IMG/VR virus record: IMGVR_UViG_3300048609_000068 | Location: 1-64,000 of that record | DNA length: 64,000 nucleotides | Source: a virus | Taxonomy: Duplodnaviria; Caudoviricetes | Reading direction: 5' to 3' (one strand) | In this document: positions 1 to 28,593 of the stretch, one piece after another | Layout: each line of letters starts with the position of its first letter | How positions within the stretch are numbered: the stretch's first letter is position 1 | The notes under the pieces: generated by a model | Seen by the model: only the letters and a program-made list of their open reading frames with translations | What the model was told of the DNA's origin: nothing | Databases searched by the model: none | Position numbers and translations under genes: made by a program

Positions 1-107
1 CTCTTTAACTCTTTAAGATCTTTTTAAGATCTCTTTAATAATGTTTAGTTTTCGTTAACATTAAAGTAGATTTTTAAGATCTTGTTAAAGAATTTCCCGA
101 CAAGGTG

Positions 108-153
108 TGATCTTTAGTCATACTCGCTTCGCTCGTACCATGACTAAAGATCA
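108..153 (-). repeat. Hairpin element copy 1 (14-bp stem with GCGAAGC mini-hairpin in the loop)
   Basis: TGATCTTTAGTCAT (108-121) pairs with ATGACTAAAGATCA (140-153). It is nested in an outer stem 82-101/167-185. The minus-strand loop reads GGTACGAGCGAAGCGAGT. Confidence 0.85.
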
Positions 154-412
154 AACATCGTATAGGGTCGGGAAATTCTTAACAAACAATTTTCTGTCAT
201 GAGAATTACAAGGTCTATAGTCCTTCAAGAGTAAGATCTTTTTCTTCTCAGAAAGAATAATGATCACTTCGTGATCTGAAAGAGTAATAGTTAGAACCTT
301 TCTTATAAGAGAGTAGACTCAAGATCCTTACTTCTTCAAGGAACTACAAGAGTAATAGTCCTTTATGAGATCTTTAAAAGAGAAAGAGTCCTACAGGAGA
401 TGAAGCTAAAAT

Positions 413-479
413 ACGCGGAGTGAATGAAAAACGAACGTCACGAAGGTGACGGAAGTTATTTCATGGTTTCACTCCGCGT
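413..479. repeat. Nested inverted repeat / hairpin
   Basis: ACGCGGAGTGAA (413-424) pairs with TTCACTCCGCGT (468-479). Inner hairpin CGTCAC-GAAG-GTGACG at 436-451. Confidence 0.8.
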
Positions 480-854
480 GGATTAGGAGAGACGAATTCC
501 TTAAGGAGGCGACATCAGACATCCCGGAGGGATGGAAGATGTCTACTCCAAGGAATTCGGATCTCCCGGTAAAGTAAGTATAAGAAACAAGATGATAAAC
601 CTGAAGATCTTTCTTGATCCTTCTTCAAGATCATAAACTCTATTAGGATCCTTATTCTTTGTTTACATAATCTTTCAAGAGTATCAAGATCCTTCAAGAC
701 TATCTATGATCCTTTAAAGAATAAGGACTATGATCCTTGAGGTTTTAAGAAGGACTCTACTTAGTCTACGGATCCCTTACACAACGTGTATGTGCAGCTA
801 AACGCTAAAACCAAGTCTTCATCCTTCGGATGAATCCTAACGCTTATTAGCTGC

Positions 855-911
855 CATGTCTCCTTACAGGGTCTACTCGAAGACTCGTAGACAGACCCTG
901 AAGGAGACATG
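855..911. repeat. Long imperfect hairpin
   Basis: CATGTCTCCTT/AAGGAGACATG (855-865/901-911) plus CAGGGTCT/AGACCCTG, with a TC-GAA-GA tip. Confidence 0.8.
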
Positions 912-1012
912 TTAAAACCTCTTAAAACCCCTCTTGAAAAAATATTTATCTTTCAGAAGGAAGATATTAACTGCCGGACTGCTACGGAGTCTTACGGAGT
1001 AGCATGATGCTT

Positions 1013-1059
1013 TGATGTTTAGTCCTGGTTACGAACGAAGTGAGTAGGACTAAACATCA
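1013..1059 (+). repeat. Hairpin element copy 2 (inverted homologue of 108-153)
   Basis: TGATGTTTAGTCCT pairs with AGGACTAAACATCA around loop GGTTACGAACGAAGTGAGT. It is nested in the outer stem ACTGCCGGA/TCCGGCAGT (970-978/1069-1077). Confidence 0.85.
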
Positions 1060-1267
1060 ACACCTTATTCCGGCAGTGGGGGTAAAAAAATTAAAAAGAA
1101 AAATAAGTAAGGAATGATTAAAGACGATTAAAGACTAATACCTTATTAAAGACTCTGGATGGAAGAATACTAACTAGAGAGGGTAGAATAAGTAAGGTGA
1201 TAGAATAACTAAAGATTGGTAGATCTTTTTTGACTCTGTTGATTTAAAGATTAAATTAATTTATTAA

Positions 1268-1500
1268 CGCGCGCATGTGCGCGTGGGCGCGCGAAAGAAA
1301 AATTTTTTCGGAGAAAAAAATTTCGGCTGGCAAGAAAAATTTCGCGGCTGGAATTTTTCCGGGAAAATTTTCCCGGCGCGAAAACCCTCGCCGGGCTCCC
1401 TGCGTTTTGCGGATTGGCTTGGCTGTTCGTTTTTGCTCGGCTGCAGAGCGCGTGCGCGGCTTTCCCGAAAAAATAAAAAAAGCTACATGACACGCCAAAT
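1268..1500. other. CGCG blocks, repeated A/T tracts and an 18-bp perfect palindrome; candidate packaging (pac/cos) or terminus site
   Basis: CCGGGAAAATTTTCCCGG at 1359-1376. GA(n)TTT tracts at ~1297, 1313, 1334 and 1363. GCGCGC blocks at 1269-1293 and ~1448-1458. Confidence 0.4.
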
Positions 1501-1748
1501 ATGTGTCAAGAATTATTTTTTCGTGTCTAAATCCCCTTTGTTTTTGACGGGATACAGCGAGCAAAAATTTTGTCACTGCAGGCAATCAAAAAACGCTTCA
1601 TAACATATCTAAAGGCTTGGATTTCCTGATTAAAATTTTGTGATCCTATTTTCAAACTGACCGGTAATAACATGCCCTTTTCAAATCCTTACTTATTAAA
1701 AAGTGCCCTTTTTGGCAAAAACTAACTAAGAAACTGCTTTTTGAAAGT

Positions 1749-1762
1749 TGACTCGCGTGTCA
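1749..1762. promoter_or_regulatory. TGAC-N6-GTCA palindromic operator-like site
   Basis: tTGACtcgcgtGTCAa. The same motif occurs at 1869 and 4614. Confidence 0.5.
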
Positions 1763-1868
1763 AATGCCAGTTTTGACCGAAAAAAAGTGCATAAATGAAC
1801 AGAATCTGGAAAGTGTTCATTACAACAACCGATAGAAATCCACAATTTTCCTATTAAACCTTATTTTA

Positions 1869-1882
1869 TGACACTTTAGTCA
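1869..1882. promoter_or_regulatory. TGAC-N6-GTCA palindromic operator-like site
   Basis: aTGACactttaGTCAa, 120 bp from the 1749 copy. Confidence 0.45.
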
Positions 1883-2074
1883 ATGATTAAAAAACTAAAC
1901 TTCAAGGAAAATACCTTAGTTTTTTGGCCCAAAAAATAAACTTTTTGGGTGCTTTTATTGACACACCGTGTCAGATGCAGTGATAAAAGAATGATGGCGG
2001 TTTGTTGTATCACTGGGGATCTTTTTCAAAAAGATCAGGATATTCCGTATTTTATACGGGAAAGGAGATTTTTC

Positions 2075-3106
2075 ATGGACCAGACGGAACGGAAGCGGAT
2101 CATCCTGGTAACCCAGGGAGGAGCTGGAGACGTTCTTGCCCATACCCCCATGGTCCGGTACTACCGGAAGAAGTACCCGGAGGACGAACTCATCGTGGCG
2201 TCCACCTACGCGCAACTCTGGGAAAACAATCCAAATGTTGACAAGGTTGTCCCTTTGAACGCTGTAGAAGAGTTCTACCAGGATGAGATTCTGCACAAAG
2301 AAATCCGATTCGTGAAAAAACATTTCGTTTACGATTCAATTTTTGATGAACGCGGAAGAGGATCAAAATGTCTTCCGGAATTCATCTGTAAAATTTACGA
2401 TGCAGAATACGATGGTCAGAAGCTCGATTATTTTGTTGCAGAAAAAGAGAAGAAAATTGCAAAGACATTTCTTAGACAGTATCGAACTACGACAAAATTG
2501 CCGATCGTTCTCTTGCATTGCACAGGATCGATCGCTTCTGATGGAAATTTGAATAAATCAAATTCATTCAAAGATCTTGAGATTCCGAAAGTAGTAGAAC
2601 TGGTGAAACGGCAAAAGGAAAGAATCCTGTTCATTCAGATTGGGCTGAACGGGGAGCCTGTTGTAGAAGGGGCCATAGACGCGCTGGGGATGCCCATGCG
2701 TGAGGCGGTTGCACTGATCCCAGAGGTTGACTCCTTCCTTTTCATTGAGAGCCTCTTTGCCCATTGCAGCAACGCTCTGGGGAAGACCGGGCTTGTTGTC
2801 TTCCAGAATACCGATCCGACGTTCTTTGGCTACTCGAACAATCACAACCTGTCCTTCAGCGGAGGCTGTGCCGACTGGCCATGCAACCGACCCGTGGGAG
2901 CGCTCTTCGATCTGATGGCCGGGTACAGGAACCCCAAGACCCGGCAGAAGCTCCTCTGGGAGTGCAATGACCAACTCTGCAAGAAGATGCCTGTAGAGGA
3001 TGTGGAGAAGGCTTTGCTGGAAAGCCTGGAGAGAAAAGAGACGGGGTTGGAGCTTGCGAGGGGGGTACAACCCGGGCATCGACCGGCGCAGAATGCTATT
3101 TCCTGA
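2075..3106 (+). CDS. Glycosyltransferase family 9-like (heptosyltransferase-type GT-B fold)
   Basis: GGAGDVLAHTPMVR...KYP N-terminal motif and FLFIESLFAH...ALGK.G.VVF C-terminal motif. RBS AAAGGAG before ATG 2075. Confidence 0.8.
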   Translation: MDQTERKRIILVTQGGAGDVLAHTPMVRYYRKKYPEDELIVASTYAQLWENNPNVDKVVPLNAVEEFYQDEILHKEIRFVKKHFVYDSIFDERGRGSKCLPEFICKIYDAEYDGQKLDYFVAEKEKKIAKTFLRQYRTTTKLPIVLLHCTGSIASDGNLNKSNSFKDLEIPKVVELVKRQKERILFIQIGLNGEPVVEGAIDALGMPMREAVALIPEVDSFLFIESLFAHCSNALGKTGLVVFQNTDPTFFGYSNNHNLSFSGGCADWPCNRPVGALFDLMAGYRNPKTRQKLLWECNDQLCKKMPVEDVEKALLESLERKETGLELARGVQPGHRPAQNAIS

Positions 3107-27148: not shown

Positions 27149-27201
27149 GATATTACAAGGAGGAAGATTTCCTCTATGTAACTGTTTTGAAAGGAGATAC
27201 G

Positions 27202-28593
27202 ATGCTTTGTGAAACTTGTGGCAGGGAACTGACGGATCAACAAATCAGGTGGGCAATCCGAAATAAGAGTAAGCACTTTTATTGTTCAACGACTTGTTGG
27301 GGAAAACGCCAAAGAAAGCATAACTACGATGACAAATTTTTGGACACTGATTCTGACTTATCGGCTTATTTTACAGGATGGTTCGTTGCTGACGGACATT
27401 TTTCTAGGTCCGACAAATGCATCCATATGACTTGTGTAGACAAGCAGCTTGTTGACGATTTTTGTAAAATGATTGATTACGAGAATGTTATTCATGAACG
27501 TTACAAACCTATTACTGAAAAAACAAAAAAATTATCTGTTGAGTACAGCTTTCTATTGGGTGGAAATGTACGAAAACGAATTGAAGAAATGGGGTACTCT
27601 CCTGGAGTAAAGACCGGGAAAGAGTTTTTTCCATCCAGATTTTATAATAAAGAATGGTTCTTTCCATTTTTGCGAGGTTTTATTGATGGTGACGGTACAA
27701 TCCGTGTGGGTCAAAGAGGGGATTTGTTGCTGTCAGTTGTTAATGCGTCATTTGAGTTATTAGCAGATATACATTTATATCTACTGGATAACGAAGTTGT
27801 CAAAGGAGGAAGTTTAAGTAAAGTAAAAATTACTAAAAAGAATAAGAGAAAGACTACTATTTATAGCCTAGGTTTTGGGCATAAGGATTCTATTAGTATT
27901 TGCGACCGTATGTATGAAGACCCTACGATTATGCTGGAGAGAAAGTGCGGTATGTATTTAGCTGGAAAAGAGTTTATCCTTTCTGTTGTTCCTTATGAAG
28001 AGTATACTCCTTGTCAAGCGTTCGGATGCGAAAAAGAAGCTAAGATTCGTGGCTATTGTAAACAGCATTATGATGAAAAATACCGTCGGTGGTATAACGC
28101 TAGTCATAGGAACGAACTAAATGAAAAAAATAAGAAATGGCAATTAATTAATCGTGACTTCTATTTAGCTCGTAGACGCCGTTGGTATCTAAAAAATGCT
28201 GAAAAAGAAAGACAACGTTCAAAAGCATGGAAAGATGCCAATCCTGAAAAAGTGAAGTTAATGAAAGATAATTATCGGGAGAATAACCGTGACAAAGTAA
28301 ACGAATACAAGCGTTCGTATAGAGAGGAGCATAGCGAAAAAATTAGAGAGCAGGAAAAGGCTTCTTATCTGCGAAATAAACAACAAAAGAACCGGCACAG
28401 TCGAGAATACTACCAAAAAAACCGTGAGAAGGTGTTGGCTCAAGCCAAGGAGTACCGAGACCGCCCAGAAGTAAAAGAACGCAAAGTGCAATACTGTAAG
28501 GACTACGAAAATAAGAACAAGGAAAAGCAGCAGGAATACCGCCGCCAATATTACTACCGCAAAAAAGCCGAACGCGAATCTCTCCAAGACTAA
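27202..28593 (+). mobile_element. Free-standing double-motif LAGLIDADG homing endonuclease with zinc fingers and a long charged helical tail
   Basis: AYFTGWFVADGHF and PFLRGFIDGDGTI. N-terminal CETC..CSTTC, second finger C..FGC...GYCKQHY, and C-terminal Y.E.N.EK repeats. AT-richer than its neighbours. Confidence 0.8.

Follow-up and report, generated by a model that had tools for sequence, protein, structure and literature searches.

A mirror-image pair of compensated hairpins in a gene-free block of a large uncultured phage carries a mini-hairpin tip motif that recurs in many viruses

The cis-acting DNA signals of large uncultured phages, origins included, are almost unknown, and gene homology cannot locate them. 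The IncQ plasmid RSF1010 has in its oriV two near-identical hairpin signals of about 40 nt, ssiA and ssiB, one on each of the complementary strands, next to iterons and an AT-rich stretch and with conserved single-stranded flanks 5' and 3' of the stem; ssiA contains a C-GAA-G mini-hairpin (PMC8567376, PMC13037366). The mini-hairpins d(GCGAAGC) and d(GCGNNAGC), described by Hirao and colleagues, are found in the complementary-strand origins of G4, St-1 and alpha3 (PMC13037366). With its sheared G.A pair, d(GCGAAGC) is nuclease-resistant, binds SSB poorly and melts at 76.5 C, compared with 39 C for r(GCGAAAGC) (PMC13037366). Promoter P1 of phage N4 is a hairpin with a 5-bp stem and a GAA loop, which has the same 7-nt core as one of the hairpins described here (copy A; PMC13434306, PMC13037366). 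Intergenic stem-loops of another kind, the PeSL of T4-type phages, have GGGG..CCCC stems fused to sigma-70 promoters and are RNA terminators (PMC2839356, PMC4122927).

The locus described here is at the head of IMG/VR record IMGVR_UViG_3300048609_000068 (75,411 nt, classed linear; CheckV completeness 41%), the first 64 kb of which constitute the stretch analysed, called the window below. Nearly all genes are on the plus strand, from 2075 to ~67 kb, and their products include a glycosyltransferase-9-like protein, a sigma factor, a sugar nucleotidyltransferase, a WYL protein, the large terminase, and portal, tail and fibre proteins. An NAD-dependent ligase gene lies close to the right end of the record, and a LAGLIDADG-domain protein, probably a homing endonuclease, is encoded at 27187-28593, within the virion gene block. 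The best match to the large terminase among deposited phages is only 31.6% identical and comes from Virus Rctr197k (197 kb). IMG/VR holds a complete relative of 183,765 nt, and the window's phage is therefore represented by a fragment of a ~180-kb genome. In the complete relative (G004, the IMG/VR record of L179) a 127-nt end overlap gives a circular map, almost all genes are on one strand, no non-coding gap exceeds 581 nt, and the sigma-to-terminase distance is 41 kb as against 4 kb in the window's phage.

The first base of the record falls within an AT-rich non-coding block (Table 1). No open frame longer than ~60 aa is present in 1-1260 under code 11 or with any single stop reassigned. The 385-aa frame listed at 1949-3106, whose product is glycosyltransferase-9 (heptosyltransferase)-like, is overlong, its start lying at ~2075 behind a GGAGA ribosome-binding site. 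Homologues of this first gene align only from about residue 43, and a 97% identical protein begins at window 2069-2075, which leaves no coding sequence in the first 2,074 nt. In the window no Rfam family reached its gathering score or E < 0.05, a scan of 1-2000 returning just weak microRNA-like chance matches. A tRNA scan found nothing, and the 2-kb region had no blastn match in the phage collection.

The G+C-richer second part of the gene-free region contains an A-tract/T-tract block (~1290-1380), TGACAC..GTGTCA palindromes and promoter-like sites. Composition shifts sharply from AT-rich to G+C-rich at 1268-1470, a stretch with five A-tract/T-tract units clamped by CGG/CCG and a perfect 18-bp palindrome (~1360-1377), which is 99% conserved in the window's sole close relative, a contig starting exactly at window 1270. 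The A-tract/T-tract array may be bent DNA or a protein-binding array. Three TGACAC..GTGTCA-type palindromes precede the first gene (1487-1512, 1748-1763 and 1958-1975, the last overlapping a promoter-like TTGACA site) and resemble operators at which one of the HTH regulators of the phage would bind.

A first-pass annotation of the sequence had described an inverted homologous pair, 108-153 and 1013-1059, in the AT-rich block. The quoted sequences proved correct, and the homology extends further than claimed: when 1-1270 was compared with itself by blastn, 102-159 aligned with the reverse complement 1066-1006 (85% over 61 nt, E 1.2e-12), taking in the 5' flank and a conserved 3' flank ending CACCTT. 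There is no additional copy of this 61-nt pair element in the 75,411-nt contig. The cores of copies A and B (46 and 47 nt) are six substitutions apart, plus one extra T in a bulge. All six substitutions belong to three pairs in which Watson-Crick pairing is preserved (C-G to G-C, A-T to C-G and, in the mini-stem, G-C to A-T), and 18 of 18 pairs are intact in each copy, bearing out the annotated compensation in the stem and covariation in the loop mini-hairpin. Six random substitutions spared every pair with a frequency of 2.4e-4 in 2 million simulations. The tandem G.A positions, the GAA loop and the 3' flank are identical in the two copies.

A larger outer stem also surrounds each copy, as had been proposed (14 bp at copy A and 9 bp at copy B; Table 1). 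The two outer stems show no homology to each other and, since they are unrelated in sequence, it is the conserved flanks that are held in the internal loop between two helices. Folded as single-stranded DNA, the pair gave z values of -7.0 to -8.7 relative to shuffles on both strands. The tip of copy A contains the exact 7-nt core GCGAAGC on the minus strand of 122-139, and copy B has the A-T variant. No T-runs follow copies A and B.

Other explanations for an inverted pair of this kind were rejected. A lox- or gix-like recombination-site pair is unlikely, as the central spacers are 18-19 nt and unlike between the copies. Nor is a transposon with inverted ends likely, there being no target duplication at the outer ends of the pair and no transposase. 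Palindrome-templated correction without selection would erase G.A mismatches, yet these are kept here and in ~95 other loci.

RSF1010, cited as a precedent in the first-pass annotation, proves an apt one. Like ssiA and ssiB, the window pair comprises two highly similar signals, one per strand, near iterons and an AT-rich stretch, and its hairpins are base-paired and capped by a C-GAA-G mini-hairpin, a match of shape. Unlike the RSF1010 sites, the homology extends over 61 rather than 40 nt, the stems are longer and contain tandem G.A pairs and a bulge, the copies are 860 nt apart with five hairpins between them, and the replicon is a large phage. RSF1010 encodes a RepB'-type (AEP) primase, a RepA helicase and a RepC initiator of its own; in the 75-kb record, which is rated 41% complete, Prim-Pol and Toprim_2 gave no match, and no RepA or RepC was noticed. 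Compared with the DNA mini-hairpin GCGNAGC, copy A has the exact 7-nt core and a G-N-A loop with sheared G.A; copy B, in contrast, is closed by A-T, and the core is lengthened to 17 nt by a tandem G.A step and TAC/GTA.

The first-pass annotation called the sequence between the two copies an AT-rich spacer. It is AT-rich, but it also houses five further hairpins and a direct-repeat array, bringing the hairpins of the AT-rich block to seven (Table 1). The five inner hairpins have the architecture of the pair: a long stem topped, beyond a symmetric purine-rich internal loop (GA/GA, GAA/GAA or AGA/GAA), by a short stem that ends in a G-N-A loop. H1, 262-276 and H5 have the purine version on the minus strand, and H3, H4, H6 and H7 on the plus strand. 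This order across the block (-, -, +, +, -, +, +) has no single clean switch, which counts against reading it as an origin. Of the contig's perfect stems of at least 11 bp, the first 1.5 kb has six, as many as all of the remaining 74 kb, and four of the contig's seven GNA-triloop hairpins with a stem of at least 5 bp lie within the first 1,320 nt. The first 1300 nt contain 12 GATCYTT repeats in one orientation, compared with 0.25 per kb elsewhere (~37-fold enrichment). Their spacing is suggestive of helical phasing at ~10.35 bp (P 0.03-0.09) and is not significant overall. TTAAAGA-type repeats are enriched across the AT-rich block.

Table 1. Hairpins, repeats and non-coding parts in the first 2,074 nt of the window
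Feature	Position	Strand	Details
AT-rich non-coding block	1..1267	.	~37% G+C vs 45-49% in genes; houses all hairpins and repeats
Composite hairpin H1 (copy A)	88..180	-	Purine (G.A/GAA) version on minus strand
H1 parts			Outer stem 88-101/167-180 (14 bp), inner stem 108-121/140-153, tip 122-139
Copy A stretch homologous to 1006-1066	102..159	-	85% over 61 nt
Small hairpin	262..276	-	6-bp stem, GAA triloop on minus strand
Hairpin H3	406..486	+	Perfect 12-bp arms 413-424/468-479
H3 inner hairpin	436-451	+	GAAG loop, GAA/GAA purine internal loop alongside
Hairpin H4	486..566	+	Arms 486-502/550-566; AGA/GAA purine internal loop; tip 520-534, GGA triloop
Hairpin H5	794..854	-	Inner hairpin 818-834, minus-strand GAA triloop, tandem GA/GA alongside
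Hairpin H6	855..911	+	Perfect 11-bp arms; tip TC-GAA-GA on plus strand
Composite hairpin H7 (copy B)	970..1077	+	Purine version on plus strand
H7 parts			Outer stem 970-978/1069-1077 (9 bp), inner stem 1012-1026/1046-1060, tip 1027-1045
Eleven GATCYTT repeats	17..738	+	Starts 17, 109, 235, 323, 369, 606, 616, 647, 688, 708, 732
Twelfth GATCYTT repeat	1222	+	
GATCYTT near-variants	28, 78, 771		
Three ATTAAAGAC repeats	1117..1152	+	
Second non-coding part, G+C-richer	1268..2074	+	Ends at true glycosyltransferase gene start, 2075

The tip motif, TAC-GA-RC-GAA-GY-GA-GTA (17 nt, with tandem G.A pairs and a GAA triloop), was searched for in IMG/VR with its two variable positions (R and Y) left free, and occurs at no fewer than 118 loci. 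Among the 125 matches listed, the free pair is G..C in 53 and A..T in 42 (95/125), while G..T and T..G occur once each; 12 C..A cases represent one conserved coding sequence. An all-Watson-Crick control motif, in which both G.A steps were replaced, gave 26 loci (18 distinct) in the whole IMG/VR collection, which is chance level, and its free positions were scattered (G..C 0, A..T 3). As the tip motif is far above this control, the G.A mismatches are selected, not just palindromy. Tandem sheared G.A pairs are favoured in a Y-GA-R context, and the rule of a 5' purine and a 3' pyrimidine at the free pair keeps that context on both strands.

Pairing extends beyond the motif. Four or more extra Watson-Crick pairs abut it in 24 of the 64 dereplicated matches listed (38%, compared with 0.4% expected), and the first four flanking positions are paired in 73%, 59%, 56% and 52% of the matches listed, as against ~16-33% in a mismatched-partner control. 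The motif is between predicted genes in 53 of 65 dereplicated matches listed, most others being in doubtful short frames, and its strand bears no relation to that of the flanking genes (++ 13, -- 13, -+ 11, +- 8 among the matches listed). Unrelated phages and giant-virus contigs are included in the matches listed, sometimes with tandem arrays. The motif is absent from T4, T5, N4 and RB49, and three matches in Virus Rctr197k are probably due to chance. Selection on a fold-back structure, which the first-pass annotation deduced from covariation, is well supported because the changes in the pair are compensated and the tip motif recurs widely with R-Y covariation. The loop type and its use as a single-strand signal are already known; the extended 17-nt unit appears to be new, as neither it nor its 13-nt core (both variants) was found in the present sense in the full-text literature searched.

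Inverted pairs around AT-rich cores recur in other phages (RB43, L034/L040/L110, L122 and L101). Coliphage RB43 (NC_007023), which can be cultured, has three unannotated copies of a composite repeat of ~170 nt, at 32.5, 103.7 and 138.4 kb (loci L135, L134 and L127), in the rnh/gene 55, gene 3/ORF200 and gene 24/uvsY gaps, including upstream of uvsY and gene 55. Each comprises two plus-strand mini-hairpins, an AT-rich core and two minus-strand mini-hairpins. An AT-rich core of ~55 nt hardly varies from copy to copy or in the related record L070, whose orthologous hairpins differ from those of RB43 by compensated changes. The RB43 repeat resembles the window in its mini-hairpin units, its G-C/A-T covariation and its mirrored arrangement around an AT-rich core in long gaps; unlike in the window, the units are bare hairpins of 13-17 nt, two per side, with purine strands first plus and then minus, and the core between them, which is highly conserved, measures only ~95-125 nt. 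T4 has a replication origin at uvsY, and the parallel with the RB43 uvsY copy may be taken as a lead, by analogy.

In L034, L040 and L110 (148-156 kb) and in L122, the pairs are 125-284 nt apart and ordered minus then plus, as in the window. A stretch rich in G+C and apparently structured comes after the plus-strand hairpin of L034 (2950-3100; also in L040 and L110), downstream of a promoter close to consensus. Neither Rfam nor tRNA scans matched it, and it might be a small RNA of a new type. Among the matches listed, the closest in design to the window is L101 9436-10114, a 680-nt divergent gap adjoining a glycosyltransferase gene in a fragment of a very large phage (CheckV 16% complete). This gap has six tandem-G.A hairpins (GAA, GCA, GTCA and GCTA loops), five tandem 11-bp GATC-bearing iterons and many more GATC sites. 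Both pair orientations occur in other phages (+- 6, -+ 4 among the matches listed), and this too counts against an origin.

Closer to the window's phage, a search with the junction returned a single relative, the 2,143-nt contig that begins at window 1270. Neither strict nor looser DNA patterns for the pair hairpins gave anything convincing in viral, metagenome or genome collections; three further pattern matches are roughly what chance would give, although the one in L008 has a proper stem. Relatives found by way of the glycosyltransferase and terminase are 41-67% identical in the neighbouring gene and differ in gene order. In these, the complete 183,765-nt genome included, gaps of 0.35-1 kb have neither the hairpins nor the motif, which argues against an origin. 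The same holds for the 75-kb fragment, in which no replication initiator, helicase or primase gene was seen, although the record is rated only 41% complete.

The first-pass annotation left the choice between a structured DNA and a structured RNA element open. A structured element it is, and the evidence leans to DNA: motif orientation is random with respect to genes, G.T pairs are nearly absent (2/125 matches listed) and d(GCGAAGC) is particularly stable, so that a DNA-level rather than an RNA-level fold is favoured. The presence of purine hairpins on both strands of one gene-free block points the same way. Documented uses of this loop type are as single-strand initiation signals (G4-type origins, ssiA and N4), and the block is read as origin-like on that ground. 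We estimate the probability at about 40% that the elements in the window are cis-acting DNA signals working as single-strand fold-backs in an origin-like control region. The annotation's suggestion of a bidirectional phage origin with strand-specific priming would be in keeping with this, and it is possible, if tentative, that the pair provides entry or start sites specific to each strand and helps to hold the opened state.

The structure, the covariation and the DNA-type signature of the motif family are observations; opening, priming and origin function are what we infer, as follows. Each element would consist of a long stem and a tip made up of tandem sheared G.A pairs, an R-Y pair, a C-G pair and a GAA triloop, its unpaired conserved flanks being kept in the internal loop formed by the outer stem. 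Together, the pair, the five similar hairpins and the one-way GATCYTT array would form a control region heading the rightward gene block. Binding and opening of the AT-rich repeat region would let the purine strand on either side snap into a hairpin (minus strand to the left, plus strand to the right), and these folding strands would be the lagging-strand templates of forks leaving the centre. The folded hairpin, free of SSB, might be a landing or start site for primase, primosome or RNA polymerase, while the pyrimidine complement would fold poorly and remain open. Synthesis begun on the folded strands would head inwards across the repeat array.

An unlikely alternative to DNA signals of this kind is that the elements work as RNA, in the form of transcribed hairpins that are processing sites, 5'/3' end protectors, terminators or parts of a non-coding RNA. 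With two stems and an internal loop they are reminiscent of RNase III sites, tandem G.A pairs are common in RNA too, and 1-1100 folds strongly as RNA on both strands. In L122 a near-consensus sigma-70-like promoter stops a few bases before the plus-strand hairpin, so that the transcript would begin with the hairpin, and in L034 a similar promoter is ~150 nt upstream; some members of the motif family may therefore act in transcripts, and the pairs that bracket sigma-70-like promoters elsewhere are compatible with RNA or insulation readings as well. However, within the window the purine version is on both strands of one gene-free block, and across the family (65 loci among the matches listed) its strand shows no link to the direction of the genes. 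Where covariation is seen, G.U-type pairs hardly occur; the elements match no Rfam family at gathering score or E < 0.05 and are not followed by T-runs, and the mini-hairpin is far less stable as RNA (PMC13037366). It is very unlikely that the hairpins are N4-type promoters, to be read on the template strand by a phage RNA polymerase, even though the N4 P1 GAA-loop hairpin is built on the 7-nt core of copy A (PMC13434306, PMC13037366). N4-type hairpin promoters have a stem of 5-7 bp and a 3-nt purine loop. N4 P1-P3, the early promoters used by the virion RNA polymerase, are, like the window hairpins, small GAA- or GGA-triloop DNA hairpins, extruded from double-stranded DNA and read as single strands near the genome end; they have one orientation and are ahead of genes, whereas the window pair is inverted and, from the folded strand, both elements point into a gene-free spacer with no frame longer than 60 aa. 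That the phage has a gene for a sigma factor implies reliance on the host RNA polymerase; no phage RNA polymerase was noticed in the fragment, and N4 itself lacks the motif.

Palindromes of a selfish or recombination-prone kind (REP/REPIN, MITE or PeSL-like), which spread or persist between genes, promote rearrangement and have no dedicated role here, would account for the same tip being present in unrelated phages and giant-virus contigs, some with tandem arrays, and for the three copies of the ~170-nt element in RB43. Two assemblies break in the block, and gene order around the glycosyltransferase gene differs from that in relatives, so the site would be a rearrangement point. Such an origin for the elements is nevertheless unlikely: the 75-kb record has one pair and no dispersed copies of the REP/REPIN/MITE kind, there is no target duplication, and among 63 related genomes 62 have the RB43 uvsY copy in its place, as a fixed cis element would be. 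PeSL are also intergenic stem-loops of large phages, and are tied to genome shuffling, but their stems are GGGG..CCCC and promoter-fused, whereas those of the window are AT-rich with no adjoining consensus promoter (PMC2839356). A packaging, terminus or injection-control region near a genome end or pac site would fit a contig that ends inside the block and a terminase gene 8-9 kb downstream on the same strand. Hexamer repeats that contain GATC serve as the pac site of P1, and in T5 the inner edge of the terminal repeat is occupied by a non-coding injection-stop region of ~1 kb that is rich in repeats. Yet no terminal repeat was found for the record, the T5 region has direct repeats but none of the window's hairpins, and the motif is absent from T5. 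The complete relative, whose map is circular, has no comparable block, and in RB43 the motif family is at internal intergenic sites; a role in packaging or injection is improbable.

For the family as a whole, a wider proposal may be made as one joint claim, which is doubtful: that large phages widely use the 17-nt tandem-G.A/GAA mini-hairpin as a single-stranded-DNA signal not described so far, and that mirror pairs of it mark replication origins, locking opened strands and offering SSB-free start sites around AT-rich, repeat-bearing cores. The mini-hairpin may also be present in some giant viruses. The motif matches the chemistry of the most stable DNA hairpin known. If mirror pairs do mark origins, the window, with its seven hairpins and twelve iterons, would be an unusually elaborate example. 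If the motif turns out to be mobile or to act as RNA, its wide spread over unrelated viruses must still be accounted for. A short, searchable motif would give a handle for finding such sites in thousands of genomes.
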